Assembly (NCBI GenBank): GCA_043753895.1
Contig: JAYUWK010000133.1
Location: 2,644-66,643, forward strand
Direction: 5' to 3'
Source: Actinomycetota bacterium
GTDB lineage: Bacteria; Actinomycetota; Acidimicrobiia; Acidimicrobiales; Ilumatobacteraceae
DNA: 64,000 bases
Each line of letters starts with the position of its first letter. The stretch's first letter is position 1. Below are positions 22,172 through 44,600 of this stretch, piece after piece. Under the pieces are notes generated by a model that ran no database searches, had not been told where the DNA came from, and saw nothing but the letters and a program-made list of their open reading frames with translations. The position numbers and the translations under genes were made by a program.

Positions 22172-22558
22172 TCAGGCGCGACCCATGATGCGGTCGACGA
22201 CAATCTCGATGGCCACCCGATCGACTCGCTCTCCGGGCTGGCGGTACCGGTTAGCGTACCCTGCGACGGCGGCGGCCACGCTCGACGCATCGGTGGCGAG
22301 ACGGACCTGGCCTTCGAGGGTGAGCCATCGGCCTCCATCGACCTGCGACACAGCAGCCCGGCCGCCTCGCGCGGCGTTGCGGGCCTTGATCGATGGCGCG
22401 AACGTGATGACCCGCACGAGACGATCGGCAGGGGAGTAGCTGAAACCCACCGGAACGACATGAGGACTGCCGTCGGCACGCAGTGTGGTGAGCGTGGCGA
22501 GGTGGCGCTCGGTGAGAAACGTAAGTACCTCGTCAGAGAGGTTGGCAGGATCGATCAT
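22172..22558 (-). CDS. PPOX-class (pyridoxamine 5'-phosphate oxidase-like, probably F420-dependent) split-barrel protein
   Basis: It has FLTERHLATLTTLRADGSPHVVPVGF, a typical PPOX split-barrel N-terminus. The ATG at 22558 overlaps the stop of the upstream permease gene by 1 nt. Confidence 0.6.
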   Translation of the reverse strand: MIDPANLSDEVLTFLTERHLATLTTLRADGSPHVVPVGFSYSPADRLVRVITFAPSIKARNAARGGRAAVSQVDGGRWLTLEGQVRLATDASSVAAAVAGYANRYRQPGERVDRVAIEIVVDRIMGRA

Positions 22559-25104: not shown

Positions 25105-25143
25105 TGCGATGGGCCTAACGCTGCCTGTGATGACGGGTGGTGG

Positions 25144-27688: not shown

Positions 27689-28432
27689 TCATTCCCCGAA
27701 GCGCTTCATACGATCGAGTACGCGGTCCGCTGTGGGATCCTGCATCTCGTCGACGATGCGGCCATCGGCCAGGAAGATGACGCGATCGGCGTAGCTCGCG
27801 GCAACCGGATCGTGGGTGACCATCACGATGGTTTGTCCCAATTCGTTCACGGCGAGGCGCATGAACGACAAAATCTCAGCACCGGTGCGGCTGTCGAGGT
27901 TGCCCGTGGGCTCGTCGGCGAAGATGATGGTGGGCCGGCTGGCAAGCGCGCGGGCCACGGCAACACGCTGCTGCTGGCCGCCCGACAACTCGCTCGGCCG
28001 GTGGGTGAGACGGTCGCGCAGACCAACGGTGTCAATGACCCGGTTGATCCAGGCTTCATCACCCTTGGAGTTGCCGAGCAGCAACGGGAGGCGGATGTTC
28101 TCTTCGGCCGAGAGCGTGGGGATGAGGTTGTAGGCCTGAAAGATGAAGCCGACCTTCTCGCGGCGCAACTCGGTGAGTTCTTTGTCCTTGAGCGTGGCGA
28201 GGTAAGTGTCGCCGATGTACACGGCGCCCGATGTGAGGCCGTCGAGACCGGCAAGGGTGTGCATGAGGGTGGACTTGCCCGAACCGGAGGGGCCCATGAT
28301 GGCGGTGAATCTGCCGGCTTCGAACGCGACGGTCACGCCGTCGAGGGCTCGTACTTCGCTATCGCCTGAGCCGTAGAACTTGGTGGCATCGACGGCTCCG
28401 GCTGCAGCGGTGGCGGTGGGGGCTTCAGTCAT
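27689..28432 (-). CDS. ABC transporter ATP-binding protein (MacB/LolD-type)
   Basis: It has Walker A GPSGSGKST, signature LSGGQQQRVAVARAL, Walker B IIFADEPTGNLD and an H-loop VTHD. The start is at ATG 28432 (MTEAP) or ATG 28459. Confidence 0.9.
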   Translation of the reverse strand: MTEAPTATAAAGAVDATKFYGSGDSEVRALDGVTVAFEAGRFTAIMGPSGSGKSTLMHTLAGLDGLTSGAVYIGDTYLATLKDKELTELRREKVGFIFQAYNLIPTLSAEENIRLPLLLGNSKGDEAWINRVIDTVGLRDRLTHRPSELSGGQQQRVAVARALASRPTIIFADEPTGNLDSRTGAEILSFMRLAVNELGQTIVMVTHDPVAASYADRVIFLADGRIVDEMQDPTADRVLDRMKRFGE

Positions 28433-28812
28433 CCCGTAGTTGTATCGGAAAATCGGCAATTACCGATCCAGAACAGGGTGGATTCGTTACCTGGACCGGT
28501 GGGTAGGCGTCTCGTCTCAGCCGCCGGACAGGGCCTCGATGTACTGCACGATCAGTGCCACCTCAGCCGGAGTAAGCGACTTCGTCGCTGCCTTGGCGCT
28601 GCGTGGCCGTCAGACTGACGGTTGAGGCGTCGCCAGAGTCGGGTGCACACGACGCGAGCACGGCACCAGCCAACAAGGCAGTGACCACGGACGCGAAGAC
28701 GATACGTCGCTGTACCACGGCGGCAAACTATCGCAGCGGTGCAGGGTGCGCGGAGACGCGGGATTGAAACCCGTGGCTCGCGCCGGGGTGCCGATGCCGT
28801 ACGATCTGCCCA

Positions 28813-31800
28813 GTGAGTTCGTGCCCGTCCTGTGCAAACCCGGTTGCCGCCGGCTCCCGTTTCTGCCCGACGTGCGGGTTTGCGCTAGCGGCCGCATCGA
28901 TCGAGGAACGCCGTGTCGTGACGGTGCTGTTTGCCGATCTGGTCGGGTTCACGGCATTGGCCGAACATCTCGATCCCGAACACGTGAAGCGCCTCGTGGA
29001 CTCGTGCTTCGAACGATTGGTCGAGGACATCACCACCTTCGGGGGCACGGTCGACAAGTTCGTCGGCGACGGCATCGTTGCGCTCTTCGGCGTGCCCGTT
29101 GCACACGAGGACGACGCCGAGCGGGCGGTGCGCGCAGGTCTGCGCATGCAGGAGTCACTCGCATCCTTCGCTGCAGCGCGCATGTTGCAAGGCAATGCCA
29201 CCGCGCTGCAGATGCGCGTCGGCATCAACACCGGCGTCGCCCTCGTGGGCACCGTTGCCGGCACCGATCACACGGCGATGGGCGATGTCGTCAACACGGC
29301 ATCGCGGTTGCAGTCGCTTGCGCCGCCGGGCGGCGTGCTCGTCGGGGAGTCCACGCACGGGCTTACCGTGTCGAGCATCACCTACGAATCGCAGGGAGAG
29401 CTCGAGGCCAGAGGTCGCGATGCGGCGATCGCTGCGTGGTTGGCCAAGGGTGCGATCTCCCAACCGGGCGCACGCCGCCGGCGCCGTGATGTCGCCATCA
29501 TGGGTCGCTCCACCGAGCTGGCCCTCACGGTCGCATCGGTCGATTTTGCGATTGCGAACTCGCAGGCCGCACTCGTGGCGGTCGATGGCGCAGGTGGCGT
29601 CGGCAAGAGCCGTCTGGTCGATGAGTTACTCGAGGCGGCGCGCTCGAAACACTCGGTAATCGTCATCGAGGGATCCGCTGTTCCGTACGGTGAATCGAAC
29701 GTGTGGTGGCCACTTGCGAGCGCGCTGTTCGATCGTCTCGAACTGGACGCAGCGTCATCGCCCGAGACGGTTCGCGAGATCGCTAGCGGCCTGGGTCGTG
29801 AACTTTTTGCCGATGCCGACGCCGCCACGGTGACGGGTCTTACCGATGCGTTTCAACATCTACTCGGTTATCCCTCGAAACTCGACGATGTTGATCCCGT
29901 CACTGCCCGCGACGCTGTGAACCGCGCCGTGGCCTCGGTCTTCGAACGCCGGCTGCGCACCGGCCCGGTGTTGTTGTCGATCACCGACATCCATTGGGCC
30001 GATCCCGTGGTGCTGTCGTTGTGCGAACACCTCCTTGTTGCACTGGCGCGACGGCCCTTTGTGCTCGTCACCACCAACCGCCCCGACCCAGAGCTGGCGT
30101 GGCCGCCGTTGTCCACCCGCGCCGCAGTGGTGCGTCTGCCGCTCGAGCCGCTCGGCCCCATCTCGGCGGCGCAGCTATGTCGGGCGATCATCGGCCCCGA
30201 TGCCGACGAGGCCACCATCACCACCATCTACGAACGGTCCGGCGGTAACCCCCTGTTCCTCGAGGAACTCGCCGTGCTGGTTGCCGAAGGTGGCGACGTT
30301 CGCGCTCTGCCCGACTCGTTGCGTGCCGTCATCGCAGCGCGTCTCGATCAGCTCCCACCAGATCAGCGAGCGGTCATCGACAACGCTGCGGTACTCGGAC
30401 CCTCGGGCGTCATCAACAGCCTCGAACGCTTCGCCCGCGAACTCGGTCAACGGCTCGATCCCCTTGTGCTCGACGGCCTGCTCGATGGTGGCCTGCTCGA
30501 GATCGAAGGGCGACGCTGGGCGTTCAAGTCGGACTCGGTTCGCGAGGTCGCGTATCAGACGCTCACCAAGGCCGTGCGCGCAGCACGCCACATGGGTATC
30601 GCCAGCTCGATGCAGGGTCGCCACTACAGCCCCGACGACGTGGCGCACCATTTGGCCGCCGCTGCAGAACTGGTCACCGAACTCGGCCCGCTCGCCGGTG
30701 TCCCTGCCGACATCGTCGATCAAGCCACCACCGCGCTGGAGGCCGCGACCGAACGCCAAGTCGAGCAAGGCAACCTTCGCCAGATCGTGCGGTACTCCAC
30801 GCGCACGATCGACCTCGTCGAAGCCGCCGGCCTCACTGACGCATCGCGGGAGATCCGGGCCCGCCAGCGCCTGCATCGTATCGTCGCCCTGGTCGATCTG
30901 CGCCAGCTCGATCGGGCACGATCGGAGACCGATTCGGTCCTTGGCGAAGCGCTCACCGACCACGATCAGCAGACCGAAGCGCGTGCCCGTCGCGCATTGG
31001 GTCTCATCAGCCAGGTGGCTGGAGACCTTCCCGCGGCGCGTCGTCAACTCGGCGAGTCCATCGACCTCTTTCGCGAGATCGGCGATCATCAACAGCTTGC
31101 CGACACTTTGCGCGCCCGAGGCTTTCTCGAGTTGTTCGGCGGTTCGCTCGCCGATGCAGAGTGGCTGTTCGGCGAAGCAGAGGGCCTCTATGTCGATCTC
31201 GGCGACCGGCGCGGGCTCGGCTACATCGAACAGCACCGCGCCTGGATGGCCTTTCTCGGCGGCAACATGCAGGTCGCCGAAGAACATCTGTATCGCGCTG
31301 CGACGACGCTCACCGAACTCGGCGATCGCGCAGGCGTCGGGTGGGCGTACGGGCTACTCGCCTTCGTGCACTTCTACAATCGTCGCTTCACCGAGGCCGA
31401 AGAACTCGCCAATGTGGTGCGCGCCGAAGCCCGTGAACGTGGCGATGAATGGGCCGAGAGCATGATGCTGTCATTGCTTGCCTCGATGCGCCTGTGGACC
31501 GGCCACATTGACGCGGCGGCCGCACTGGCCGAGCAGGCGAGGGCGCGCTTCAAGAAGCTGGGCGATGGCTTCGGGTTGGCGCAGGCGCTTGCGGTGCTGG
31601 GTCGTACGCAAGTCGCGCTCGGCGATCCGAGCGTGGCTCGCACGAGTGAGGCGTTGATTGCACAGGCCGATCAGTACGGCGAGTCGGCCTTTCCGTTCCT
31701 CGCCGCAGCCGGTATAGCAATGCACGGCGGCGACGCCAAGAGCACGGTCACCTACGCCAACGAAGCCATTGATCGTATGCAGAAGGTGCAGGCCGATCCC

Positions 31801-32271: not shown

Positions 32272-32654
32272 CGCGGGTACAGCCGACCTCGGCACGCTTG
32301 ATTGACCTGCGCCCACCGCTCGCCGCTCGAATCGACGACCTGTCGCGCAACGCTGCGGCCGCTGCACCGGGTCGCACCGGTGAGCTGGCGCGGGTTCGCG
32401 TGCGTCAGTTGCTCGGGGTCGGAGACGAGACCTTGCCCACCGATCTCGATCCCGCTGAACTCGCGGCGATGGCGGTCGTCGAACAATTCGTCATTGATGT
32501 ACACGGCCTCGACGATGCCACCTTCGCCGCACTCTGCGCGTACTACACGCCGGCCGAGCAGATGGGTCTGTTGTTCCATCTCGCGCTACTCGATGGGTTC
32601 ACTCGCCTACAGATCGTTGCTGGCGAGTCAATCGAAGAACAGGGACACCACTGA
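32268..32654 (+). CDS. CMD/AhpD-like helical domain protein lacking a CxxC motif
   Basis: The ATG overlaps the cyclase stop (ATGA). The C-terminal half (DDATFAALCAYYTPAEQMGLLFHLALLDGFTRL) looks like the helical CMD fold. Confidence 0.45.
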   Translation: MTRVQPTSARLIDLRPPLAARIDDLSRNAAAAAPGRTGELARVRVRQLLGVGDETLPTDLDPAELAAMAVVEQFVIDVHGLDDATFAALCAYYTPAEQMGLLFHLALLDGFTRLQIVAGESIEEQGHH

Positions 32655-33178
32655 TGGCTACCACGCCACGAATGCCGTCTGCCTTCGATGAGGAGACGCC
32701 GAGTTATGGCGGCATGTTGTCGCACCAGCCCGAACTCGTCGGCGCGTACGGCGTGCTCTATTCCGAGTTCTGGAGTCGCGGTGTTGTCGATCAGCCCACC
32801 AAGGAAGTGATCCGGCTGCGCAATGCGCGCATCACCGACTGCGGGTATTGACGCAATGTGCGCTTCGCGGTCGCGAGGCAGGAGGGACTCACCGAGGAAC
32901 TCGCCAACATGGTCGACGACAACTTCGAATCGAGTGAGCTCGAGCCTCGACACAAAGCGGCAGTGGTGTTCGCTGATGCTTACCTCGGCACCAACGGACC
33001 TCCCACCGGCGACGCACGGTCGTTCATCTCGGCGCACTTCGACGGTGATGAGATCGCCGAGATGGGTATCGGCATGGCCCTCTTCCATGGCTTCAGCAAG
33101 CTCCTCATTGCCGTTGGTGCCGAGCCAGAGGAGATGGACGTCACGATCTTGCGCACGCCGGGTTCGCCGCGCCCCTGA
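32654..33178 (+). CDS. Carboxymuconolactone decarboxylase (CMD)/AhpD-like protein with an in-frame TGA at 32849..32851, read as selenocysteine (C-G-Y-U motif)
   Basis: Track ORFs 32654..32851 and 32858..33178 are in the same frame and separated only by TGA-CGC-AAT. The joined reading is ...EVIRLRNARITDCGY[TGA]RNVRFAVARQEGLTEEL..., a full-length CMD domain. A hairpin starts 11 nt after the TGA. Confidence 0.6.
32862..32879 (+). promoter_or_regulatory. SECIS-like hairpin downstream of the TGA at 32849
   Basis: The hairpin is G-CUUCGC [GGUC] GCGAGG-C: 7 bp including one G-U pair, with apical loop GGUC. Confidence 0.5.
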
Positions 33179-33725: not shown

Positions 33726-34361
33726 TTACTTGCCGGGCTGGTGCAGCACGCGCAGGTAGGGCTTCACGGTAGTCCAGCCCTGCGGGAACAACTGCTTTGC
33801 CTCATCGTCGCTGACCGACCCGCCGATGATCACGTCGTCACCATCGGTCCAGTTGGCTGGCGTGGCGACTTTGTACTTGGCGGTGAGTTGCAGGCTGTCG
33901 ATGACCCGCAGGATCTCTTCGAAGTTGCGACCGGTAGAGGCCGGGTAGGTGATCTGCAGCTTGACCTTCTTGTCCGGCCCGATGACGAACACGGAGCGAA
34001 CCGTCATGGTGTCGCTGGCATTGGGGTGGATCATGTCGTACAGGTTGGCAACGGTCTTGTCGGTGTCGCCGATCATCGGAAAGTTCACGGGAGTGCCTTG
34101 AGTCTCGCCGATGTCGCTCTCCCACTTGAGGTGGCTCTCGACGGAATCGACCGACAGGCCGATGACCTTCACGTTGCGCTTATCGAACTCGGGCTTGATC
34201 TTGGCCACGTAGCCGAGCTCGGTGGTGCATACCGGCGTGAAGTCCTTGGGATGGCTGAACAGCACGCCCCAGCTGTCGCCGAGCCAGTCGTGGAAGTTGA
34301 TGTCGCCCTGCGTGGTGGCGGCGTTGAAGTTGGGTGCGGTATCGCCAAGACGAACGGTCAT
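33726..34361 (-). CDS. Peroxiredoxin, 1-Cys (Prx6-like) type
   Basis: The ATG at 34361 is preceded by AAGGAG. It has the motif WGVLFSHPKDFTPVCTTE, and its 211-aa length is typical for 1-Cys Prx. Confidence 0.9.
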   Translation of the reverse strand: MTVRLGDTAPNFNAATTQGDINFHDWLGDSWGVLFSHPKDFTPVCTTELGYVAKIKPEFDKRNVKVIGLSVDSVESHLKWESDIGETQGTPVNFPMIGDTDKTVANLYDMIHPNASDTMTVRSVFVIGPDKKVKLQITYPASTGRNFEEILRVIDSLQLTAKYKVATPANWTDGDDVIIGGSVSDDEAKQLFPQGWTTVKPYLRVLHQPGK

Positions 34362-34377
34362 GGTGGTTACTCCTTGT

Positions 34378-34409
34378 GAGATGGCATAGATGGGAGAGAT
34401 GGCATAGAT
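34378..34409 (-). promoter_or_regulatory. Two perfect 14-bp direct repeats just upstream of the peroxiredoxin RBS (candidate operator)
   Basis: gagatggcatagat occurs at 34378..34391 and again at 34396..34409, an 18-bp period. The repeats are AT-rich relative to their surroundings. Confidence 0.4.
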
Positions 34410-34555
34410 AGTTCTTGCTCGCACAGTATGCACCGATTCCCGATCAATCCACTCAAGAATTGGTCGGGCGGTGTTGACGCCGCGGATAGAGTGCTCTACG
34501 AGTCGGCTGACGATCGCGGGGAAGCGATCGTCCCTCGGGGCACTGGAGCAAGGCG

Positions 34556-35485
34556 ATGAGCATCAGACCGCACATCTACGAGATCTACATCAAAGCCACG
34601 CCGCAGCAGGTGTGGCAGGCGATCACCGATCCCGAATACACGAGCCGCTACTTCTACGGCACCCGCCTCGAGACCGATGGCGGCGTCGGCGACGGCTACC
34701 GCTATGTGGGAGACGATGGCGCCCCGGCGATCGAGGGCCTGATCGAAGCCACCGAGGTCGCCAAGCGCCTCGTGATGACCTTCCGGTTCGTGTACGAAAC
34801 AAGCCTGGCCGAAGAGCCGCCGAGCCGTGTGGAGTGGGTACTCACCCCGGCAGGCGAACTCACTCGGGTCACGCTGCGTCACGGCGACCTGTTGAAGAGC
34901 CCGCGCACGTGGGAGCACGTGCGCATGGGCTGGGTGGCCATTGTCGATGGCCTCAAGACGCTGCTCGAAACCGGCGAGAGCATGGGCGACATCGACGACC
35001 CCGAGGCAGCGAAACCTGCGGAGGATCCCGAAGGCGAGTGGCACCGTTCGCAGGGCGTCACGGCGAACAACGGCACGTGGGAGTGGCTGCGCAAGCCCGA
35101 CGCCGAACGCACTGCCGACGACGAAGAGGCAATGACCCTGTCGGCGTACGCGGCCGCGTATCACTGGGCGCGTGCTGCACGACGCGTCCCCGAAAATGTG
35201 GCTCGTGCCGAATGGTTGATTTCACGGGTGTGGGCAGTGCGCGGCAACGGCGCGCTGGCGTTGCACCACGGCGATCGCTGCATGGCTGCGTGCTCAGCCG
35301 CGAACTTGGCCGACTTCGATCTGGCCTACGCGCACGAGGCTCGCGCCCGCGCGTTGGCATGCTTGGGTCGCACGGACGAAGCGGTTGCAGAACGCGCGCT
35401 CGCTGCTGCAGTGCCGATCGCCGACGCCGAGGACCGCCACATCGTCGTTGCCGACCTCGCCGCTGAGCTGTGGTTCGGAGTGTGA
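34556..35485 (+). CDS. SRPBCC (AHSA1/START-like) domain protein with a helical C-terminal extension
   Basis: The N-terminus IYEIYIKATPQQVWQAITDPEYTSRYFYG is typical of SRPBCC family proteins. The C-terminal ~150 aa are Ala-rich and helical. Confidence 0.6.
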   Translation: MSIRPHIYEIYIKATPQQVWQAITDPEYTSRYFYGTRLETDGGVGDGYRYVGDDGAPAIEGLIEATEVAKRLVMTFRFVYETSLAEEPPSRVEWVLTPAGELTRVTLRHGDLLKSPRTWEHVRMGWVAIVDGLKTLLETGESMGDIDDPEAAKPAEDPEGEWHRSQGVTANNGTWEWLRKPDAERTADDEEAMTLSAYAAAYHWARAARRVPENVARAEWLISRVWAVRGNGALALHHGDRCMAACSAANLADFDLAYAHEARARALACLGRTDEAVAERALAAAVPIADAEDRHIVVADLAAELWFGV

Positions 35486-36000
35486 ACCGGCCGATCACGA
35501 TCGTTGGTATCTGTGGCAGCCTGCAGGCCGGTTCGTCGAACCTCGCACTGTTGCACGACGCCGCAGCGCTGATGCCGATCCATGTCGACTTCACCTTCTT
35601 CGAGGGCCTCGGTGACATTCCTCACTTCAATCCCGATCACGAGGCCACTGGCGCGCCGGGTCAGGTGATCCAGCTTCGGGAAATGTTGCAAGCCGCTGAC
35701 GGAGTGATCATCGCCTCGCCGGAGTACGGCTTCTCGTTGCCGGGTTCGTTGAAGAACGCCATTGACTGGATCATCGGCACGGGCGAGCTGGCGGGCATGC
35801 CGGTTGCGGTCACGGCCTCAGTTGCCAGTGCCGGGCGCGGCCGACGCGGGCTGCAGGCGTTGCTCGTGCCCCTCGGTGCGGTGGGCGCCGTGGTGGTGGG
35901 GGGCGAGACGATCGTGCGCGGACCGGCCGCAGCCGATGCACTTGGCCGGCTCGTGGCAGCGCTCATCGCAGCGGTCGATGAACGGGCATTGGTCGAGTGA
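35482..36000 (+). CDS. NAD(P)H-dependent FMN reductase family protein
   Basis: It has ITIVGICGSLQAGSSN and IIASPEYGFSLPGSLKNAIDW. The GTG at 35482 overlaps the upstream stop (GTGA); an alternative GTG lies at 35470. Confidence 0.8.
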   Translation: MNRPITIVGICGSLQAGSSNLALLHDAAALMPIHVDFTFFEGLGDIPHFNPDHEATGAPGQVIQLREMLQAADGVIIASPEYGFSLPGSLKNAIDWIIGTGELAGMPVAVTASVASAGRGRRGLQALLVPLGAVGAVVVGGETIVRGPAAADALGRLVAALIAAVDERALVE

Positions 36001-36046
36001 ATCGCTGACCGAGTCAGCCCTTGACGTCGTGTCCTAGAGTCTGCCC

Positions 36047-36385
36047 ATGAGCGTTGTGGTCACCCTTGCCGATCTTCCCGTCGCGATCGATGTGCAGATC
36101 GGATGGTGTTATCTCCTCACCGTGTCCGACGACGCCGAGGCCCGCGTCGTTGCCATCGCCCCGGTCTGGGATCATACGGGTACCTACCTCCACGCAGAGG
36201 TGGGGCGACGTACGGCCGCCAACGTGGCCTTGCATCCGAAGGTCTCACTCGTGTGGCCGCCGGCCGCAGCCGATGGATACAGCCTCATCGCCGATGGCGT
36301 CGCTGCCGTCGATGGCACCATTGTTCGGTTCGAGCCGATGAGTGCGGTACTCCACCGCCCAGCGGTGCAGGCACCACAGTCGTGA
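36047..36385 (+). CDS. Small hypothetical protein, possibly PPOX-like split barrel
   Basis: It is 112 aa and its stop overlaps the next gene's GTG. There is only a weak family resemblance. Confidence 0.35.
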   Translation: MSVVVTLADLPVAIDVQIGWCYLLTVSDDAEARVVAIAPVWDHTGTYLHAEVGRRTAANVALHPKVSLVWPPAAADGYSLIADGVAAVDGTIVRFEPMSAVLHRPAVQAPQS

Positions 36386-37032
36386 ACGACGAACAACTCT
36401 CGGCCGCCCTGGCCGACGAGCGTCTCGCCTTGGCCGACCTGCTCGAATCGCTGTCGTCCGAGCAACTGCGAGTCTGGTCGTTGTGCGCCGATTGGCGTGT
36501 ACACGACCTTGCCGCCCATCTCACGGCGCTGTTCAACGTCTCGATGCCATCGTTGCTGATGCGGGTCGTGAGAAATGGATTCTCTGTCACCAAGTCGTCG
36601 AAACAGATCACTGCCGAGTTGGCCGCGCGGCCCATCGCCGAGATCGCTCAGCAGCTACGCGACAACGCGTCGAATCGGAAGCACCCTCCCACGCTGGCAA
36701 TGGCGCCGCTGGCCGAAGTCATCGTGCACGGCGAGGACATCCGCCGTCCGCTCGGCATCACGCGCGAGATCCCCTTCGAGCGTGTCTCGGCAGTAATGGA
36801 TTTCATCACGGGAGGCCGCGCAATCGGCTTCCTGCCGGCATCACGAATTCGCGGACTGCGGTTCACTGCCACCGATGGCGACGGTATTTGGGGCAGCGGT
36901 CAGATCGTGCATGGCCCTGCGCTGAGCCTGCTGATGGGCGCGATGGGTCGACGGGTTGCGTTCGCCGACCTGGGCGGCTCGGTCGAGGTGTTGTCCACTC
37001 GGCTGCAGGGCAAAGTGAAGCGCATCGAGTAG
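36382..37032 (+). CDS. DinB-fold, mycothiol-dependent maleylpyruvate isomerase-family (TIGR03083-like) protein
   Basis: The N-terminus LADERLALADLLESLSSEQLRVWSLCADWRVHDLAAHL is typical of this actinobacterial family. It has a GTGA overlap with the upstream gene. Confidence 0.65.
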   Translation: MNDEQLSAALADERLALADLLESLSSEQLRVWSLCADWRVHDLAAHLTALFNVSMPSLLMRVVRNGFSVTKSSKQITAELAARPIAEIAQQLRDNASNRKHPPTLAMAPLAEVIVHGEDIRRPLGITREIPFERVSAVMDFITGGRAIGFLPASRIRGLRFTATDGDGIWGSGQIVHGPALSLLMGAMGRRVAFADLGGSVEVLSTRLQGKVKRIE

Positions 37033-37062: not shown

Positions 37063-37542
37063 TCAGAGGTACTGCTCCAATTGGGAGGCAATTTCGTCCG
37101 GGGTGACCATGGGGCTGAACCGGGCCACTACGGCACCTGAGCGATCGATCAGGAACTTCTCGAAGTTCCATGTGATGCTGTTCGTTTCAGCCACTCCGGG
37201 CTGTTCGGTCCGGAGCCATTGATAGAGCTCGCAGGCACCGTCGCCATTCACCTCGATCTTGGAAAAGATCGGGAAATTGGCGTCGTATTTCGATGTGGCG
37301 AACTCGAGGATCTCTGCGTCGGTTCCGGGCTCTTGTGCGCCGAATTGATTACACGGGAACGCAAGCACCGTGAAGCCGCGAGCGGCGAAGTCCTGCTGGA
37401 GCGTACGCAGACCTGCGTACTGAGGCGTGAGGCCTCAAGCGCTCGCAACGTTGACGATGAGAACCACCTGATCGCGGAACCGGTCGAGTGCAACCGGATC
37501 ACCACCGATCGAGGTCATGGCGAGGTCATACAGATGTGACAT
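37063..37542 (-). CDS. Glutathione peroxidase with an in-frame TGA at 37435..37437 at the peroxidatic position, read as selenocysteine
   Basis: Track ORF 37063..37368 and the tail of ORF 37435..37980 share a frame. The joined reading is [35 protein letters not shown][TGA][37 protein letters not shown]...WNFEKFLI. This is the complete GPx fold with the TGA where Cys/Sec sits in NVASxCGxT. Confidence 0.7.
37403..37420 (-). promoter_or_regulatory. SECIS-like hairpin downstream of the GPx TGA
   Basis: On the minus strand it reads GUACGCA [GGUC] UGCGUAC, a perfect 7-bp stem with a GGUC loop, starting 14 nt after the UGA. Confidence 0.6.
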
Positions 37543-37567
37543 GGGCACCAAGGTAGTACGTGTGGCC

Positions 37568-38536
37568 TCAGCGTGTCGGCCCGATCGCACATTCGAACGT
37601 GATCGAACGGCTATGGGGGACGAACCCGATCGCGCCGTACAGCCGGTGAGCGCCCGTCGGGCTGTCGCTGTCGACGTCGAGCGCAGCGTGAGTGAGGCCG
37701 ATCTCGCGATACCGGTGCAACGCGGTGAGGATGAGCGCACTCGCGATACCCCTCCCGCGCCACTCATCGAGTGTGCCGACTTTGTCGATGTATCCCTGGG
37801 CGTACCCGAGCACGGCGTCGTCGGCTTCGTAGCGGTAGCTGAGCAGCATCGCGACGATCGTGTTGTTGCAGTCCACCGCAACGAACGACAGATCGGTGCG
37901 CGCGCCGAAGCCCTCGGTGGTCTGTCGCCAGACCTCGTCGCTTGCCGGCGTGGAACCCCAATGGCTTGCAAACGATGCATTCTTCACGTCCTTGATCTCA
38001 CTCGAGCGCTCTGTGGGCCAGGCAATGATGCTGATATCAGCAATGTTCGGAATGGGGCCGATCTCTGCGAGAGCGATCACGAGTTCGTCGAAGTATCGGA
38101 CCGGGCTGAGGCCGCACCTCGCCATCAGTCGGTGTGCATCAGCGACCCCCTCAAGCGCTTGGGTGCGGATGAACTTGGGCAGTGTGTTGGTGCCAGAGTT
38201 CAACATGGCGTCTGCTCGAGCCATGCCCCATGCCATCAGCTCGCGCCCAATGTTGCGACCGCGGTACTTGGGGTGCACCGTGCCGAACACATAGCAACGT
38301 TCCTGGACGACCTCCGACGGCAGGTACTGAGCCCATGCGGCACCGACCAGCGTGGCGTTCACGAATGCGCCACGCGTGTCGGTGGCGGGGTCCAGCGCGG
38401 GCGGGCTGAGCTCCTCACGAACTTCGTCGACATCCATCACCATCTGCAGGCCGTCGAAGTCGTTGCCAGTGTTGATCAGCGCACAGACGGCCTGCATGTC
38501 GTCGGGCTCGAGTGGGCGGAACAGGGTGTTGTCCAT
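37568..38536 (-). CDS. Tandem-GNAT N-acetyltransferase (MshD-like two-domain architecture)
   Basis: It has two acetyl-CoA-binding motifs (YRGRNIGRELMAWG and WRGRGIASALILTAL) in a 322-aa protein. Confidence 0.65.
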   Translation of the reverse strand: MDNTLFRPLEPDDMQAVCALINTGNDFDGLQMVMDVDEVREELSPPALDPATDTRGAFVNATLVGAAWAQYLPSEVVQERCYVFGTVHPKYRGRNIGRELMAWGMARADAMLNSGTNTLPKFIRTQALEGVADAHRLMARCGLSPVRYFDELVIALAEIGPIPNIADISIIAWPTERSSEIKDVKNASFASHWGSTPASDEVWRQTTEGFGARTDLSFVAVDCNNTIVAMLLSYRYEADDAVLGYAQGYIDKVGTLDEWRGRGIASALILTALHRYREIGLTHAALDVDSDSPTGAHRLYGAIGFVPHSRSITFECAIGPTR

Positions 38537-38539
38537 GCG

Positions 38540-39661
38540 TCAGGCTGGCACTGTGTTGCGTGACCATCTGGCGATGCTGGCGCGCACGCCTCGTCGAAAC
38601 GGGTCCTCGACCAATCGGTAGGAGACCACTGTCGCGGCTGCTGTCAATGTCAGCTGCGCTGCGGTCAGCCACCACCTGTCGAGCCCGCTGCTCTCACGCG
38701 TGACGAGCGCAATAATCGGCCAGTGCCACAAGTACAGGCTGTAACACCGCGTGCCGAGCCAGCGCAGCGGTGCCCAAGCGAGCACGCCTGCGGCCCCGCC
38801 GCCGCGAACTGCCGCAGCGACGATAGCCGTCGTTGCAAGCCCGGTCGCGAACATTCCGCCGTCTGCGATGAAGCGCGAAGCCTCGTCATCAAGCGTGAGC
38901 GACAGCACTGCGATGGCCCCCAGACTCGTCGCGGCAATGAAGTTGAGCACCGAGCGCGCCCATTCGCTCGACCACAGAGCCGGTCGCGCGGCGAGGAGGA
39001 TGGCAAGCGCGCTGCCGGCGAGCAGCTCGGCCCCGCGGACCCCGGTGTTGTAGTAGACGTCGGTGGTGCTGCCCCAATCGAGGCGTGTGATTGCCAGCCC
39101 ATAGATTGCGCCGAGACCGGCCAGCCCGCACGCGACCATCCCGACAGTTCGAAGGGGGCGGCGCGCAAATCTGAGCGTGACCACGGTGATGATCGGCCAC
39201 AACACGTAAAACTGCTCCTCGACAGAAAGGCTCCACAAATGCTGGAAGGGTGACACTCTTCCGGAGAACTCAGACCAGTAGTCGACGGAGTGGGCGAGTT
39301 GCCACCAGTTATTCGAGTAGAGCAACGACGACATGACGGCGCCGCGATCAGACGCTTCCCAGGTGCCGCCGGCGACCAAGAGTGCTACCACGACGAGCAA
39401 CATCACGTAGTGCGCTGGCAAGAGGCGCCGGCCGCGCCGCACCCAGAACCGACCCAGACCGACCCGCCCGCCGGTACTGATCCGTTCGTTGAGGATCAGT
39501 CGGGTCATCAAGAAGCCCGAAAGCGGGAAGAACACACTCATACCCACCCAGCCGCCCGGCATCTGATGCGGGCGCAGGTGAAGCCACACCACCAACGCGA
39601 CGGCGATGCCGCGGATGCCATCGAGGGCCGGTACTTGAGCGCTGCGCGGCGGGGTATACAT
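38540..39661 (-). CDS. Acyltransferase-3 (AT3, OafA/YrhL-like) integral membrane acyltransferase without its own SGNH domain
   Basis: The reading starts at MYTPPRSAQVPALDGIRGIAVALVVWLHL, the AT3 N-terminal motif. About 10 helices follow, and the protein ends after the membrane domain. Confidence 0.75.
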   Translation of the reverse strand: MYTPPRSAQVPALDGIRGIAVALVVWLHLRPHQMPGGWVGMSVFFPLSGFLMTRLILNERISTGGRVGLGRFWVRRGRRLLPAHYVMLLVVVALLVAGGTWEASDRGAVMSSLLYSNNWWQLAHSVDYWSEFSGRVSPFQHLWSLSVEEQFYVLWPIITVVTLRFARRPLRTVGMVACGLAGLGAIYGLAITRLDWGSTTDVYYNTGVRGAELLAGSALAILLAARPALWSSEWARSVLNFIAATSLGAIAVLSLTLDDEASRFIADGGMFATGLATTAIVAAAVRGGGAAGVLAWAPLRWLGTRCYSLYLWHWPIIALVTRESSGLDRWWLTAAQLTLTAAATVVSYRLVEDPFRRGVRASIARWSRNTVPA

Positions 39662-39684
39662 CGTCGTCGCGGCTGCTGTTTGGC

Positions 39685-42141
39685 TCACGGCCTGATGTCC
39701 CACACATTCGCGAGGTGGGCCATCACAGTCTGGGTCAGCAGCGAGTAGAGGGGTGCTTTGTAATGCACGCCATCTGGCTGGAATTGATCGAGGTATTGCA
39801 GGGCCACATCCTGCCAATCGAGCACCGAGATGTTCGGCCGATCGCGTACAACGCGCAACAAGGCTTGGTTGTAGGCGGTGGACGCGTCGAGCGACCACGC
39901 CGTGGTGGCGCTGACGAGTACCGGAGTGATCCAAACGGTGGGCTCCTCACCGATTGCGTCCGCGATCAAGCGAATCCGCACAGACGGATCGACGCCATCG
40001 CGGTGTGTCTCCATCGCGTCCTCGGAGCTCAGCGCGATGACCCAGCACACAGATTTGTTCGGCAGCACCAACCGAAAGTCTTTTATGACCTGCAGGGCCG
40101 ACGTGCCTCCATTGGCAGCGCTCGTTGCTCCTCGGCCATTCGCGAAGTCCAAATACGCCACCGCGCCAGTTGCCGCATATAAGTCGCGGAAGGCCGAAAA
40201 CGTCATTCCGAGGTTGCTGTCGCCGAGGTGCACGATGGTGTCGCAGACCGGTCGCGCCGGCGCCACGGTGGTCGTCGGTGCGGCTGGTGTCGAGGCTGCA
40301 GCCGGCGACCCGGCTGCTGAGGAAAGGTAGTAGGCGAGGCCCGACGGGATGATGTTGTCGGTGGGCTCCACCGCTGTCGTGGGCCCCATCGCCGCCGTGT
40401 GCACCTTTGCGTCCGCCTCCAGGGTTGGATGCCCAACGGCCACTGCCGTGATCACTGCTTGCTCGGGCTGGCCTTGGCCGAGCTGTACCATCACTACGCC
40501 GAGCGACAGGGTGATCAGGGCCACGGGCACCGTCACGGAAGGTCGTAACCAACGGACAAGTCGCTGGCGCAACCTCGCCGGCCCCTTGCTCGACCACCAC
40601 TGGATCGCGATCGCGGCAGCGACGGCGATCACAAGCGGATCGATCATGTGGCGAAAGCGTTCTTGTTCGCCGAGTTCACCGGTCACACCAACGGCAAAGG
40701 TCCACGCGGTGGTGAAACCCGTGAGGGCGATGATTGTTGAGCGCGTCAGGTTGGTGGTGCGGGACCGAAGGATCAGCCAAAGGTGCCGAGCGCCGCCCAC
40801 CAAGACGACGACTGTGGCAATAATGACGAGTATCGACACTGGGCTCTCGTGCGGGCTGTACCAACCCGAGCGAGCCTTCCAGGACGCGGGCATGGGCGGG
40901 TGGGCGACGGCGACGAACAGAATGTTGCTCACCGTGTCGATCGCTTCCACGACCGGGGAGCTGACTCGACCGCTGTCGGAGGGAACGCAGAACCAATTGT
41001 TCACGGCCCAGAGCCGCGCCGTGAACCAAGCGCCGGGCCGGGCCCGAATGAGTGCGAGCGCGTCGCTGCCGGCACGATCGAAGACAGGGAGATAGCACTC
41101 GTAGTTGAAGTTCGGCGTCGGCGATGGCGATGGAACGACTGAGGTGGGGGCCGGATAACGCATCCGTTGGGTGAGTACGGCATCGGTGTGGGAGGCCGCG
41201 CACGGGGGCATGACTGGCTCATAGCCGGCGTAGTCCGAGAATGGTCCAACGACGGCCACACCACTGATCGTGCCGGCCTCGTGCAACTTAGCGATGTCCT
41301 GAGGAGCAACCGCAGGCCCGACGGATCGCAGTAAGTTCATTCCAGTCCACGACGACAGTGATGACTCACCGAAGAGAACCTGATTCTTCGCTGACCAGCC
41401 TCCGATCACGAGCAGCGGAATGCCGATGGCCGCCACCATGGTACGACGCGAAATTGTTCCACGGCGGGTCCACAACGCCACGGCGAGGACGACGGCCAGC
41501 CAGAGCGGGTGATACAGACTGCGGGTCATCGCGATGACCGTCGCCACGACGGATCCAGCGAGCACCATCCGCGATCGATCGGGCCGCCGGGCAAGGAGGC
41601 AGACCATGAGCGCCAGAAGTGCAGCAACAGGAAGTTCGTACAGTTCGTCAAACCCGTGCATCAGCATGGCCCGGTTGGCCGAGCAAATGAGCGCGATCAC
41701 AACGGCCGTGCGGCGATTCATGCCAAGCGTGACGAGCAGGGTGGCGATACAACCTGCCAGGACCATGCCGCTGATGAGCATGAATAGTTGTATGGACTGG
41801 GCGAGATTCAGCGGGCTCCAACGGCCGAGTGAACCCACGAGCAGATTCCACCCAGGAGGTTGGATGTGCAGATACCAGACGCTACGAAGCGGATGAGCGA
41901 TGAGCGCTGGCAGCGGCGCCAGCTGCCAGAGAGACTCTCCCGAGGCGTTGAAGGTCTGGCCGGTGAAGGCGGCAATGCAGTAAATGGTCGCCCACAGTGC
42001 GGCGCTCGCACCGGCGGGCGAACGAAGCGCTGACTTCAGCCGTGAGCTCAGCGCAGAGGGGATGCCGGGAGGCGTGCTCTCGGTCTGGCCGAGTCTGTAG
42101 GAATGAGGTGGCGCGTCCCCAGCGAGGCGCTCGTTGTACAT
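39685..42141 (-). CDS. Large membrane protein: GT-C-like polytopic N-terminal domain fused to a C-terminal SGNH/GDSL-type hydrolase domain
   Basis: The N-terminal helices carry an HIQPPGWNLL loop, reminiscent of GT-C/PMT-type glycosyltransferases. The C-terminal domain has IVHLGDSN (block I) and FQPDGVHY (block V). Confidence 0.55.
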   Translation of the reverse strand: MYNERLAGDAPPHSYRLGQTESTPPGIPSALSSRLKSALRSPAGASAALWATIYCIAAFTGQTFNASGESLWQLAPLPALIAHPLRSVWYLHIQPPGWNLLVGSLGRWSPLNLAQSIQLFMLISGMVLAGCIATLLVTLGMNRRTAVVIALICSANRAMLMHGFDELYELPVAALLALMVCLLARRPDRSRMVLAGSVVATVIAMTRSLYHPLWLAVVLAVALWTRRGTISRRTMVAAIGIPLLVIGGWSAKNQVLFGESSLSSWTGMNLLRSVGPAVAPQDIAKLHEAGTISGVAVVGPFSDYAGYEPVMPPCAASHTDAVLTQRMRYPAPTSVVPSPSPTPNFNYECYLPVFDRAGSDALALIRARPGAWFTARLWAVNNWFCVPSDSGRVSSPVVEAIDTVSNILFVAVAHPPMPASWKARSGWYSPHESPVSILVIIATVVVLVGGARHLWLILRSRTTNLTRSTIIALTGFTTAWTFAVGVTGELGEQERFRHMIDPLVIAVAAAIAIQWWSSKGPARLRQRLVRWLRPSVTVPVALITLSLGVVMVQLGQGQPEQAVITAVAVGHPTLEADAKVHTAAMGPTTAVEPTDNIIPSGLAYYLSSAAGSPAAASTPAAPTTTVAPARPVCDTIVHLGDSNLGMTFSAFRDLYAATGAVAYLDFANGRGATSAANGGTSALQVIKDFRLVLPNKSVCWVIALSSEDAMETHRDGVDPSVRIRLIADAIGEEPTVWITPVLVSATTAWSLDASTAYNQALLRVVRDRPNISVLDWQDVALQYLDQFQPDGVHYKAPLYSLLTQTVMAHLANVWDIRP

Positions 42142-42350
42142 AGAGTTTAGCCCATCGTTCTATTTCGCTCCACAGCACGCGCGCACGGAGCGTTGCGCCG
42201 TGCCCGTCGCACAAAGCACCGTACTTGACCGACAGGCGACATGCCGTGCGTGAGGTGATTGACGGCGTGACGGGGGCGACGCGTGAACTGGCATATCATC
42301 TGCCACTAGTTTGTGTGCGTCAATCCGCACAGCAAAGGGACCCCGTCACC

Positions 42351-42986
42351 ATGTCGAGCGAAGCCACCCCACGTCTCATCTGCGACATGCGCGACGTGCG
42401 CTACGGCGAAGTGTTGGCCGTCTACCTCCGCGACAGTGGTCTCGAGGCCGAGGTGTACGGCACACAGATGCTGAATGACTGCCCGCAGGAATTGTGGGAC
42501 ACACTCGATGCCCCGACCATCGCTGCCGAGATGGGTGCCGTGATAGTCAAGCTCAACGGGCCGCGTTACTGGATGCTTGATGGTCTCGGCCAGAAGGTAG
42601 CTGTCGTGGATCCGGTCTTGCGTGACTTCAACGGGCTGATGATGCGCCGTATCGCGGTGGTGAACCTCGGCGACAGCCCGGCCGTCCAGCCATACGTGGA
42701 CCGATACGTGAACCGTGGCGCGGTGTTCTTTTTCGATGCCGGTTCGCCGGTGTACGAACTCGCCAATGCCGACGGTCTGGCGTACGTGATGCAGGCCTAC
42801 TGCGTCGCTGTCGATCCATCGCTGAACCAGGACAATCTCGCCGCGCTCGGCGACCGTCTTGCGCTGCCCGAGGGCTGGACGTTTCGCACGCGGATCCTCG
42901 ACGAGGAACTGGTGGTGGACACCAGCGCCACCATCGCCACCGTGCTTCAAGACGAACTCGAGAACACCTATACCCTTCCGTCGTGA
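42351..42986 (+). CDS. Hypothetical cytoplasmic protein
   Basis: It is a 211-aa ORF from the ATG at 42351 with ordinary codon usage. I recognised no motif. Confidence 0.4.
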   Translation: MSSEATPRLICDMRDVRYGEVLAVYLRDSGLEAEVYGTQMLNDCPQELWDTLDAPTIAAEMGAVIVKLNGPRYWMLDGLGQKVAVVDPVLRDFNGLMMRRIAVVNLGDSPAVQPYVDRYVNRGAVFFFDAGSPVYELANADGLAYVMQAYCVAVDPSLNQDNLAALGDRLALPEGWTFRTRILDEELVVDTSATIATVLQDELENTYTLPS

Positions 42987-43097
42987 TCAGCGTGAGCCGG
43001 CCACCGGTGCTGTCGTAGGGACGAACGACCCTGTTCGGCGCTACCGCGCGGCGCGACAATCGCACGATGGAGTCCTGAACCGAAGGTTGGTAGCCGA

Positions 43098-44600
43098 ATG
43101 AGTCAGACCGCAACGCTTGGCCAAGACGGCGCTGTGCGCACCGAGCACTTCGACGTGATCATCGTCGGTGCCGGCATTTCCGGTGTTGGTGGCGCGTATC
43201 ACCTGTCGCAACAGTGTCCCGAGAAGTCCTTCGTGGTGCTCGAGGGACTCGAGAGTTTCGGCGGTACCTGGCAGATGCACCGCTATCCCGGCATTCGTTC
43301 CGACAGCGATCTCTACACCTTCGGATACCGCTTCAAGCCATGGACCGGCGCGCCGATCGCGACGGCTGAGGAAATCCTGAAGTACATGGGCGAGGCCATC
43401 ACCGAGAACCACCTCGCGCCGCACATCCGTTATCAGCACCGCATCACGAGCGCGAGTTGGAGCAGCGCGACGAACCTCTGGACGCTCGAGGCAACACGCA
43501 GCGACACGGGCGAATCACTGCGGTTCACCACCAACTTCTTGTGGATGTGTCAGGGCTACTACCGCCACTCGCAGGGTTACACGCCGGAATGGGCTGGCAT
43601 GGATCGCTACTCCGGCACCATCGTGCACCCGCAGACGTGGCCCAAGGATCTGGACTACGCAGGCAAGCAGGTCATTGTCATCGGGTCGGGCGCGACTACC
43701 GCCACGCTCGTGCCGGCCATCACCGGCGAATGTGCGCACGTGACCGTGCTGCAACGGTCGCCCACCTATTTCTGGACAGGACGGAACGCGAACGAACTGG
43801 CGGACACGCTGCGCGAGATCGACATCGACGAAACGTGGATCCACGAAATCGTGCGCAAGAAGATCCTGCACGATCAACAGGTGGTCACGCAGCTGTCGTT
43901 CGACGAGCCCGAGCTCGTGAAGCACGAGTTGATCGAAGTTGTGCGCACGTTCCTGGGTCCCGACTACGACGTGGAGAAGCACTTCACCCCGCACTATCGC
44001 CCGTGGCGCCAGCGCCTTGCCTTCGTGCCCGACGGTGATCTGTTCCAAGGGATCGCCTCGGGGGAGGCATCGATGGTGACTGACGAAATCGACACCTTCA
44101 CCGAGAAAGGCATCCTGTTGAAGTCCGGCCAAGAGCTAGAAGCCGACATCATCGTGACCGCCACGGGCTTCAACCTTAGCGTGCTCGGTGACATCGCCTT
44201 CACCATCGATGACAAACCGCTGGTGTTCAGTGACACCGTCACCTACCGCGGGATGATGTTCACCGGTATCCCCAACATGCTTTGGGTGTTCGGCTATTTC
44301 CGTGCGAGTTGGACGCTACGTGCCGACCTGATCAGCGACTTCGTGTGTCGACTGCTGCAGCACATGGACGAGCTCGGGGCGCGTCGGGTCACTCCATCGC
44401 TGCGCGCCATCGATGCCGGCGATCCTGTGCTCGACTGGATGGATCCGGAGAACTTCAATCCGGGGTACCTCATGCGCAGTATGCATCTGCTCCCCAAGCG
44501 ACTGGACAAACCCGAGTGGCAGCACAGCCAGGATTACTGGGTCGAGAAAGACAGCATGCCCGCGGCCGACCTCGACGATGGGTGTCTTGTCTACGAGTGA
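43098..44600 (+). CDS. Flavin-dependent (Baeyer-Villiger/FMO-type) monooxygenase
   Basis: It has the FAD fold DVIIVGAGISGVG and FGGTWQMHRYPGIRSDS. It also has a second dinucleotide fold VIVIGSGATTAT and a fingerprint-like YSGTIVHPQTWP. Confidence 0.8.
   Translation: MSQTATLGQDGAVRTEHFDVIIVGAGISGVGGAYHLSQQCPEKSFVVLEGLESFGGTWQMHRYPGIRSDSDLYTFGYRFKPWTGAPIATAEEILKYMGEAITENHLAPHIRYQHRITSASWSSATNLWTLEATRSDTGESLRFTTNFLWMCQGYYRHSQGYTPEWAGMDRYSGTIVHPQTWPKDLDYAGKQVIVIGSGATTATLVPAITGECAHVTVLQRSPTYFWTGRNANELADTLREIDIDETWIHEIVRKKILHDQQVVTQLSFDEPELVKHELIEVVRTFLGPDYDVEKHFTPHYRPWRQRLAFVPDGDLFQGIASGEASMVTDEIDTFTEKGILLKSGQELEADIIVTATGFNLSVLGDIAFTIDDKPLVFSDTVTYRGMMFTGIPNMLWVFGYFRASWTLRADLISDFVCRLLQHMDELGARRVTPSLRAIDAGDPVLDWMDPENFNPGYLMRSMHLLPKRLDKPEWQHSQDYWVEKDSMPAADLDDGCLVYE

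Follow-up and report, generated by a model that had tools for sequence, protein, structure and literature searches.

A glutathione peroxidase gene with an in-frame UGA, probably read as selenocysteine, and a conserved downstream hairpin in an Ilumatobacteraceae-like actinobacterium

Introduction

Bacterial glutathione peroxidases (GPx) with a predicted selenocysteine (Sec) in a UxxT motif, accompanied by a bacterial Sec insertion sequence (SECIS), have been described computationally in 2005 (PMC1088965), 2006 (PMC1794560) and 2008 (PMC2398784) and are covered by a 2026 review (PMC13188914). This series of studies comprises the protein of Treponema denticola (WP_010957027.1), five sequences from the Sargasso Sea (PMC1088965) and 40 from the Global Ocean Sampling data, and Sec-GPx has been listed for 13 sequenced organisms (Peng et al. 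2016, PMC5029168). A second relevant family is that of the AhpD-like CxxU proteins, which are likewise published bacterial selenoproteins (PMC1088965). Here we present the analysis of a stretch of 64,000 nucleotides (nt) from an actinobacterium (assembly GCA_043753895.1, contig JAYUWK010000133.1, positions 2,644 to 66,643), henceforth the window, whose minus-strand gene at 37063..37542 carries an in-frame UGA (37435..37437) followed by a hairpin. Judged from the sequence, with a probability of about 0.92, this gene encodes a small and probably monomeric GPx4/Gpx3-like peroxidase with Sec as its peroxidatic residue. An earlier note on the same DNA, made from the letters alone, had proposed a Sec-type GPx at this site, and the present results support that proposal.

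The gene shares with the published bacterial Sec-GPx the PF00255 fold, the UGA at the peroxidatic residue of U-x-x-T, the small G-containing SECIS loop immediately downstream, the abundance of Cys homologues and the occurrence in aquatic or marine lineages. Compared by description, nothing categorical separates it from these proteins, and they may belong to the same clade as the carriers reported here, because marine Gammaproteobacteria and Acidimicrobiia are taxa typically met in ocean surveys. The window gene has the sequence features by which the published studies recognised Sec-GPx, and the family as such is already known, having been predicted since 2005. The accounts cited here do not mention the cross-phylum nucleotide invariance of the SECIS or its identity over 10 nt with Escherichia coli fdhF. 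The window has a G+C content of 64%, its gene order is common with that of the contigs L001-L007, and its closest named relatives are metagenome-assembled genomes (MAGs) of Acidimicrobiales / Ilumatobacteraceae.

Results and Discussion

The GPx gene and its active site

The minus-strand frame at 37542..37063 starts with ATG and comprises 35 sense codons, a TGA at 37437..37435, 123 further sense codons and a terminal TGA at 37065..37063, i.e. 160 codons in total. Its two same-frame pieces are parted by this single TGA, at which the open reading frame (ORF) 37435..37980 (minus strand) stops and beyond which no further stop is encountered before the terminator at 37065..37063. The complete gene (37063..37542), with 159 sense codons if UGA-36 is counted among them, yields a read-through product of 159 residues that matches the Pfam family GSHPx (PF00255) over profile positions 1-108 of 108 (E=2.8e-40, 136.7 bits, cut-off 27). 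A comparison with PDB retrieved 41 GPx sequences at E<1e-10. In these alignments the TGA falls opposite Cys36, the peroxidatic residue of yeast Hyr1/Gpx3 (3cmi, NVASKCGFT), and opposite the Sec or Cys of GPX4-type structures; in the locus alignment its column is occupied by TGC or TGT in 29 Cys-type bacterial genes. The split frame, the complete GPx of 159 residues on read-through and the position of the TGA at the catalytic Cys had all been claimed in the earlier note, and each of these claims was confirmed.

With Sec at position 36 the catalytic motif would read U-G-L-T, in agreement with UxxT. The remaining motifs of the catalytic tetrad are intact, since the segments 'fgaqepg' and 'wnfekf' align in the PDB comparison with the conserved Gln (FG-x-QEP) and Trp-Asn (WNF). 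The best structural matches are 3cmi, 2obi and 2v1m, which represent the monomeric GPx4-type and the yeast Gpx3/Hyr1-type (E=1e-37 to 1e-44), and the alignments are colinear over about 155 residues with all three motifs, NVAS-x-[C/U]-G-x-T, FPCNQFG-x-QEP and WNFEKF, retained. In contrast to the tetrameric GPx1-type enzymes, the window protein, with its short length of 159 residues, lacks the oligomerisation loop, and it is probably monomeric. It also differs from yeast Gpx3, whose resolving Cys82 aligns with Ala82 of the window protein, so that an intramolecular disulfide and a thioredoxin cycle are not obviously available. Because of this replacement the reductant could be glutathione, mycothiol, thioredoxin or a partner protein. 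The host differs from those of GPx4/Gpx3-type peroxidases in being an actinobacterium with mycothiol-family genes in the neighbourhood of the GPx gene, and the physiological reductant may not be glutathione.

The public annotation of this gene family is incomplete. Many high-identity matches in the protein search cover only 64% or 77% of the query, have a length of 101-124 residues and start just past the TGA column or 22 codons later; these starts and the partial coverage are explained by gene callers that stop at the in-frame TGA. The products P0014, P0067, P0068 and others, from NCBI and other pipelines, are C-terminal fragments without the catalytic residue, some of them named 'glutathione peroxidase', and the 35 codons upstream of the UGA (37438..37542, minus strand) are omitted by public gene calls. 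A look-up by exact sequence of the truncated product of the window itself (P0014) retrieved no record. The JGI protein P0002 (L094:103-582) is apparently full-length with W at the catalytic site, where the DNA reads TGA. Once the UGA is taken as a Sec codon, the gene of the window and those of dozens of relatives yield complete antioxidant enzymes.

Conservation of the TGA in three phyla

The comparison covered 88 loci, namely L001-L008, which represent three lineages with 75-86% identity, and 80 loci from a scan of one genome per species. These loci contain 60 TGA-type genes (55 distinct sequences, or 56 together with the window) and 29 Cys-type genes with TGC or TGT; the column, which the earlier note had proposed to check for C/U, holds Cys codons or TGA. 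In L001-L008 the TGA occupies the same column in all three lineages, and the homologous N-terminal piece is intact upstream of it. The TGA-type carriers are found in Acidimicrobiia, including the cultured Ilumatobacter nonamiensis YM16-303 (L065) and Salinilacustrithrix flava, in Gammaproteobacteria (Pseudomonadales, OM182, Azotimanducaceae) and in Myxococcota (Myxococcales/Kofleriaceae MAGs), and many of them are marine or estuarine MAGs of Acidimicrobiia and Gammaproteobacteria. The cultured carriers make the bacterial Sec-GPx accessible to experimental tests.

All 60 TGA-type loci have an intact N-terminal piece and are free of stops in the 30 codons before and the 66 codons after the TGA. 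The earlier note had named, as evidence against its reading, close relatives with the same TGA but with a degraded gene and no conserved hairpin; in these 60 loci no further stop occurs near the TGA and the hairpin is conserved. In a protein-guided codon alignment, the ratio of nonsynonymous to synonymous differences (pN/pS) amounts, for the stretch upstream of the TGA (residues 6-35), to 0.53 in TGA-type versus 0.56 in Cys-type genes and, for that downstream of it (residues 47-155), to 0.35 versus 0.37. Stop-free frames and a purifying selection equal to that on Cys-type genes are indicative of the translation of both gene halves. A sequencing error is excluded, because the TGA is shared by 56 distinct sequences from independent assemblies.

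We adopted the criteria for bacterial selenoproteins of Zhang et al. 2005 (PMC1088965), which demand a TGA that recurs in two or more different sequences, an in-frame TGA opposite Cys in at least two homologues, and a stable stem-loop with a small G-containing apical loop directly after the TGA, alongside selA, selB, selD and tRNA-Sec in the same genome. In the present data the TGA is conserved in the 56 distinct sequences, the position is occupied by Cys in the 29 Cys-type loci and in L093, L095 and L096, and a stem-loop of the specified kind directly follows the TGA.

The downstream hairpin and its likeness to fdhF

The putative SECIS hairpin is located at 37403..37420 (minus strand) and begins 14 nt past the TGA. 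It consists of the 5' arm GUACGCA (37420..37414), the tetraloop GGUC (37413..37410) and the 3' arm UGCGUAC (37409..37403) and extends over the codons Y42-A43-G44-L45-R46-T47. The perfect 7-bp stem corresponds exactly to the description in the earlier note, which had moreover stated that the apical 10-mer is identical with that of E. coli fdhF. This statement proved accurate, as GCAGGTCTGC is present once in fdhF of strain K-12, where it lies 15 nt past UGA-140, while in the window GPx it lies 18 nt past the TGA.

In E. coli the G and the U of the fdhF SECIS loop are contacts of SelB. The apical 10 nt (GCAGGUCUGC), which comprise the 3-bp closing stem GCA/UGC and the GGUC tetraloop, are identical in both genes, and in both cases the element resides within the coding region just past the UGA. 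The bulged U of fdhF is missing from the perfect 7-bp helix, the distance of the 10-mer to the UGA deviates by 3 nt, and an extended lower helix reaching back to the UGA is unsupported, given that the consensus fold of 56 sequences consists of the apical helix only. A small UGAGGC/GCCUCA helix in the minimum free energy fold of the window sequence is not conserved, e.g. in L005. The host gene family of fdhF is, furthermore, unrelated to GPx. The loop starts 21 nt after the UGA in GPx, 17 nt after it in the AhpD-like gene described below and 18 nt after it in fdhF. The designation of the element as fdhF-like thus holds for the apical 10 nt only, whereas the bulge, the spacing and the lower stem do not correspond. 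Scans against Rfam, of the whole window at gathering threshold and of 37300..37520 at permissive settings, gave nothing relevant; Rfam is without a usable bacterial SECIS model.

Selection on the hairpin at the RNA level

The strongest evidence for a function of the hairpin comes from its synonymous sites. Among the 55 distinct TGA-type sequences, the codons +5 to +10 (QYAGLR) are near-invariant, with CAG in 55 of 55, TAC in 54, GCA in 46, GGT in 50, CTG in 50 and CGT in 49 sequences, whereas at conserved residues outside the hairpin (Gly+1, Thr+3, Ala-3, Leu+12) all synonymous codons are used. Three of the preserved codons, GCA, GGT and CGT, are unlike the GC-rich choices that are expected in these genomes. 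The proportion of synonymous differences (pS) over the six hairpin codons, calculated from the protein-guided codon alignment, is 0.097 in TGA-type versus 0.912 in Cys-type genes, and elsewhere in the gene it is about 0.62-0.71 and alike in both types.

Within the TGA-type alignment 98.5% of the stem cells form standard pairs, and the sole helix predicted by RNAalifold from the 75-column alignment is the GPx hairpin. One stem pair changed from G-C to A-U in four sequences (L040, L058, L060, L075), which converts the codons +7 and +10 from Ala to Thr and from Arg to Cys (QYTGLC instead of QYAGLR); at this pair the constraint of the predicted SECIS overrides the protein sequence. Two more pairs show wobble variation, namely U-A/U-G in 18 sequences, which tracks Thr/Ala at position +11, and C-G/U-G in a single one. 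In L033 the pairing is maintained via two G-U wobbles. A variant of the putative SECIS is present in five gammaproteobacterial loci (L037, L041, L044, L050, L051), in which a stem of 6 bp carries a loop of 6 nt (GUACGC-CGGGUU-GCGUAC), and the exchange of GGUC for CGGGUU may mean that SelB has another specificity in these bacteria.

Cys forms as natural controls

A rough neighbour-joining tree of the GPx genes places all TGA-type genes in one clade, with the classic BtuE-like genes of Cys type (GFTPQY) outside it and a small number of Cys forms nested within its Acidimicrobiia part. These nested forms exhibit a graded decay of the hairpin. All 18 hairpin nucleotides are kept in L093:49-519 (catalytic codon TGT), the element is half decayed in L095:127-612 (TGC), where the 3' arm has been lost (CGC AGG), and in L096:10001-10471 and L097 (TGT) it is gone, being replaced by GCG GGC ATC AAG, i.e. 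by GC-rich synonyms and new amino acids. This gradation indicates that the hairpin persists only for as long as there is a UGA that requires it. The series from TGA with hairpin via TGT with intact and TGC with half-decayed hairpin to Cys without hairpin represents a natural experiment on the codon and amino-acid constraint that is imposed by a SECIS and on its decay.

Three further observations pertain to the tree and its members. L096 harbors a new Cys in the block 'DFATCTY', near the site of the resolving Cys of thioredoxin-dependent GPxs. One Ilumatobacteraceae MAG (L043) carries a Cys-type gene (3001-3465, TGC at 3106) and a Sec-type gene (about 3470-3940, TGA at 3573, hairpin intact) as tandem paralogues. 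The placements of L046 (Myxococcales), L055 (Kofleriaceae) and L057 (Acidimicrobiia within the Gammaproteobacteria subclade) cut across phyla, with SECIS elements that are nearly identical in nucleotides, and this pattern points either to horizontal transfer, in which gene and putative SECIS moved as one, or to contamination during MAG binning.

A second candidate selenoprotein gene in the window

A window-wide scan for in-frame TGAs that are flanked by open frames and followed by a GGU-loop hairpin found the GPx site again, together with one further site, whose TGA is at 32849..32851 (plus strand). It is located in a gene of about 174 residues (32654..33178, plus strand) that encodes a candidate CMD/AhpD-like selenoprotein with the motif C-G-Y-U (CxxU), as judged from Pfam, a PDB alignment and relatives. 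The hairpin GCUUCGC-GGUC-GCGAGGC (32862..32879, plus strand) follows 10 nt past the UGA and has the same GGUC loop as that of the GPx gene. The protein matches Pfam CMD (PF02627) with 26.6 bits (cut-off 23), the second Cys of the CAYC motif of the CMD-family structures 2o4d, 2ijc and 7xw1 stands opposite the U, and the nearest NCBIfam matches are '(seleno)protein' families, all below cut-off. The TGA and the identical hairpin are kept in L001/2/4 (78% amino-acid identity) and L006/7 (70%), with differing synonymous sites in the flanks. Public gene calls split this gene as well, into pieces of 45-65 and 106 residues.

The product resembles the Sargasso Sea 'AhpD-like protein' (PMC1088965) in its CMD domain, in the CxxU motif with U in place of the second Cys of CxxC and in the SECIS-like hairpin just past the UGA. 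It differs from the established AhpD-like CxxU selenoproteins in that its matches to the curated NCBIfam selenoprotein models remain below threshold and that conservation of the TGA is seen here in three lineages only. Two redox genes 4.2 kb apart, each with a UGA in the column of an active-site Cys and a GGUC-loop hairpin, argue for a host genome that decodes Sec. An annotation that takes account of Sec would add this AhpD-like selenoprotein to the locus.

The remaining matches of the scan, at 58799 (plus strand) and 58094 (minus strand), were rejected, because they lie in a low-complexity Arg/Ser-rich context with weak 5-bp stems and lack homology support. A scan of the window for TGA-interrupted genes on the basis of the G+C content at third codon positions returned gene junctions and antisense shadows only and missed both real candidates.

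Selenocysteine machinery and predicted decoding

The gene content of related genomes is consistent with Sec decoding in this part of the Acidimicrobiia. I. nonamiensis YM16-303 and I. coccineus possess SelD, SelA and SelB, with 10 and 15 selenoproteins, respectively (Peng et al. 2016, PMC5029168, Tables S1/S2), and the former (L065) harbors the same TGA and hairpin as the window GPx. According to a 2026 preprint, selA, selB, selC and selD are present in all complete genomes of Actinomarina (Acidimicrobiia). TGA terminates 25 of the 32 Pfam-supported ORFs of the window, that of GPx included. As TGA is thus a normal stop, its recoding must be local and signal-dependent.

By analogy with the bacterial Sec pathway, which was reportedly established by Böck and colleagues, a ribosome that arrives at UGA-36 would encounter the complex of SelB, GTP and Sec-tRNA(Sec) bound to the GGUC apical loop of the hairpin 14 nt downstream. 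In competition with RF2 the complex would bring Sec into the A site, after which elongation would go on as far as the real terminator, likewise a UGA but one without a hairpin. In the mature enzyme the selenolate would reduce hydroperoxides and be regenerated by a thiol reductant. The identity of the inserted residue as Sec, the binding of SelB to the loop and the chemistry of the enzyme are inferred. The current understanding of Sec decoding would remain unchanged by this gene, whose chief worth lies in the repair of annotations and in the example that it gives of codons constrained by a SECIS.

Evaluation of the Sec-type GPx and its alternatives

The reading of the gene as a Sec-type GPx draws its support from the joint conservation of TGA and hairpin, the covariation, the restriction of the RNA constraint to TGA-type genes, the selection on both gene halves and the use of UGA as a normal stop elsewhere. 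Several points weigh against it. The folding energy of the hairpin is unexceptional for a GC-rich sequence (z=-1.25 for the region of 61 nt; 22 of 200 shuffles fold as well), and GCAGGTCTGC is found a second time in the window, at 29134..29143 (plus strand). The latter proved to be a chance match, which is located within an uninterrupted adenylate-cyclase/AAA_16/TPR ORF with no TGA upstream. Because the folding energy is ordinary and the 10-mer recurs by chance, the significance of the hairpin rests on comparative data and not on thermodynamics. The covariation consists of one double-change pair in four related sequences, and 174 of 500 shuffles also reach one such pair; its modest extent results from the fact that the hairpin hardly varies. 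The contrast at synonymous sites is strong evidence, whereas the count of double-change pairs is not significant alone. ARAGORN detected no tRNA-Sec in the 64-kb window and 59 loci, which represent small parts of each genome, and tblastn with E. coli queries retrieved no SelA, SelB or SelD from the window and about 600 kb of related loci; the latter result is uninformative, as the searched loci cover small parts of the genomes. Finally, no bacterial Sec-GPx has been verified experimentally, and the 2026 review (PMC13188914) refers to the family as 'predicted with high confidence'.

A pseudogene, created by a nonsense mutation in the catalytic codon and with a hairpin that is there by coincidence, would be compatible with the ordinary folding energy and with the truncated products of 101-124 residues in the public annotation (P0014, P0067, P0068). 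It is at odds with the occurrence of the same TGA, without any other stop or frameshift, in 56 distinct sequences from three phyla, with the purifying selection on both halves, which equals that of functional Cys-type genes, and with hairpin synonymous sites that are frozen only where the TGA is present. These comparative data effectively refute a pseudogene, to which we assign a vanishingly small probability, and a shared error across independent assemblies is implausible; the view of the earlier note that the TGA is not a random nonsense mutation is thereby corroborated. The TGA could, alternatively, be a true stop that separates a peptide of 35 residues from an independently initiated C-terminal fragment of 101-123 residues, with the hairpin serving as an element of translational coupling or attenuation. 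Gene callers do find in-frame GTG, CTG and ATG starts past the TGA, but the positions and codons of these internal starts are not conserved, some being situated at Leu/Met just past U-G and others 22 codons further on. Without the peroxidatic residue and the initial beta-strand of the thioredoxin fold such a fragment could not be a peroxidase, and the N-terminal piece is colinear with full-length GPx structures and evolves like the N-terminus of Cys-type genes, all of which makes two separate products very improbable.

Decoding of the UGA as one of the standard amino acids (Trp, Cys, Gly or Arg), due either to a genome-wide code change or to near-cognate read-through that is stimulated by the context and independent of a SECIS, would result in a Cys-type or an inactive GPx. 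The W reported by the JGI pipeline for P0002 seems to speak for this scenario, as does the lack of hits to Sec machinery in the window and the related loci searched. The DNA of P0002 (L094) reads TGA, however, and the W is an artefact of the translation table, while the TGAs that terminate most of the window genes, including GPx itself, exclude a genome-wide reassignment. The enzyme would be catalytically dead with Trp, Gly or Arg at its peroxidatic site, which is at odds with the purifying selection on the gene, and Cys could be reached by a one-base change to TGT or TGC, which is accompanied by decay of the hairpin where it has occurred. The element has, moreover, the published features of a bacterial SECIS together with the GGUC loop of E. 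coli fdhF, and SelA, SelB and SelD are present in I. nonamiensis, which carries the same element. We thus regard decoding as a standard amino acid as unlikely. The probable Sec-type GPx adds to the evidence for selenium in the peroxide defence of Ilumatobacteraceae-like Acidimicrobiia and marine Gammaproteobacteria.

Genomic neighbourhood

The two selenoprotein candidates enclose a conserved set of redox genes. A 1-Cys peroxiredoxin gene (33726..34433, minus strand; AhpC-TSA and 1-cysPrx_C), which is syntenic in L001-L007, is followed by three plus-strand genes that converge on the GPx gene (35470..37032) and whose order is the same in L001-L007. They encode an NADPH-dependent FMN reductase (35470..36000; FMN_red, E=4e-28), a small PNPOx-like protein (36047..36385) and a protein of the DinB/mycothiol-dependent maleylpyruvate-isomerase family (36382..37032; TIGR03083, 82 bits, cut-off 50).

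The data would accommodate a broader scenario, which we put forward tentatively and consider somewhat doubtful as a whole, of a mobile Sec-GPx with a 'portable' SECIS and of a peroxide-defence island with two selenoproteins in Ilumatobacteraceae-like bacteria. The near-identity of the 18-nt hairpin in Acidimicrobiia, Gammaproteobacteria and Myxococcota and the apical 10 nt in common with E. coli fdhF are the basis for its first part, according to which the hairpin may be a near-universal SelB ligand and the gene may work on arrival in any Sec-decoding host. If this were true, the gene might be expressed directly in E. coli as a natural selenoenzyme. The second part is that Sec-GPx, the Sec-AhpD-like protein, the 1-Cys peroxiredoxin, the FMN reductase and the DinB/mycothiol-family protein could constitute a peroxide defence that is possibly linked to mycothiol.

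Upstream of the GPx gene the window deviates from its relatives, in which genes for an acyl-CoA dehydrogenase and a luciferase-like monooxygenase are located directly upstream (L001:7555-10309). The window contains about 7 kb inserted at this site (37568..44600), which encode a double-GNAT protein, an Acyl_transf_3 protein, an 818-residue ORF of no family, a 253-residue ORF and an FMO-like protein. The double-GNAT gene is on the same strand as the GPx gene and ends 25 nt before its start; an assignment as mycothiol synthase MshD was rejected as too weak (41 bits, cut-off 163).

Minor observations concern other parts of the window. The second copy of GCAGGTCTGC at 29134..29143 (plus strand) is part of a 5-bp GGUC-loop hairpin, GCGCA-GGUC-UGCGC, which also codes for A-G-L-R. 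The region 22558..27687 (minus strand) comprises two tandem MacB/FtsX-type permease genes of about 848 residues in one frame, with a gap that consists of a TGA and 39 nt, and an ABC ATPase gene is located at 27689..28459; recoding at this TGA was rejected in favor of ordinary gene adjacency. At 61..2757 (plus strand) an ORF of 898 residues, which may run off the start of the window, combines MFS_1 (residues 1-302) with two ABC_tran domains and represents either an unusual fusion or two in-frame genes.

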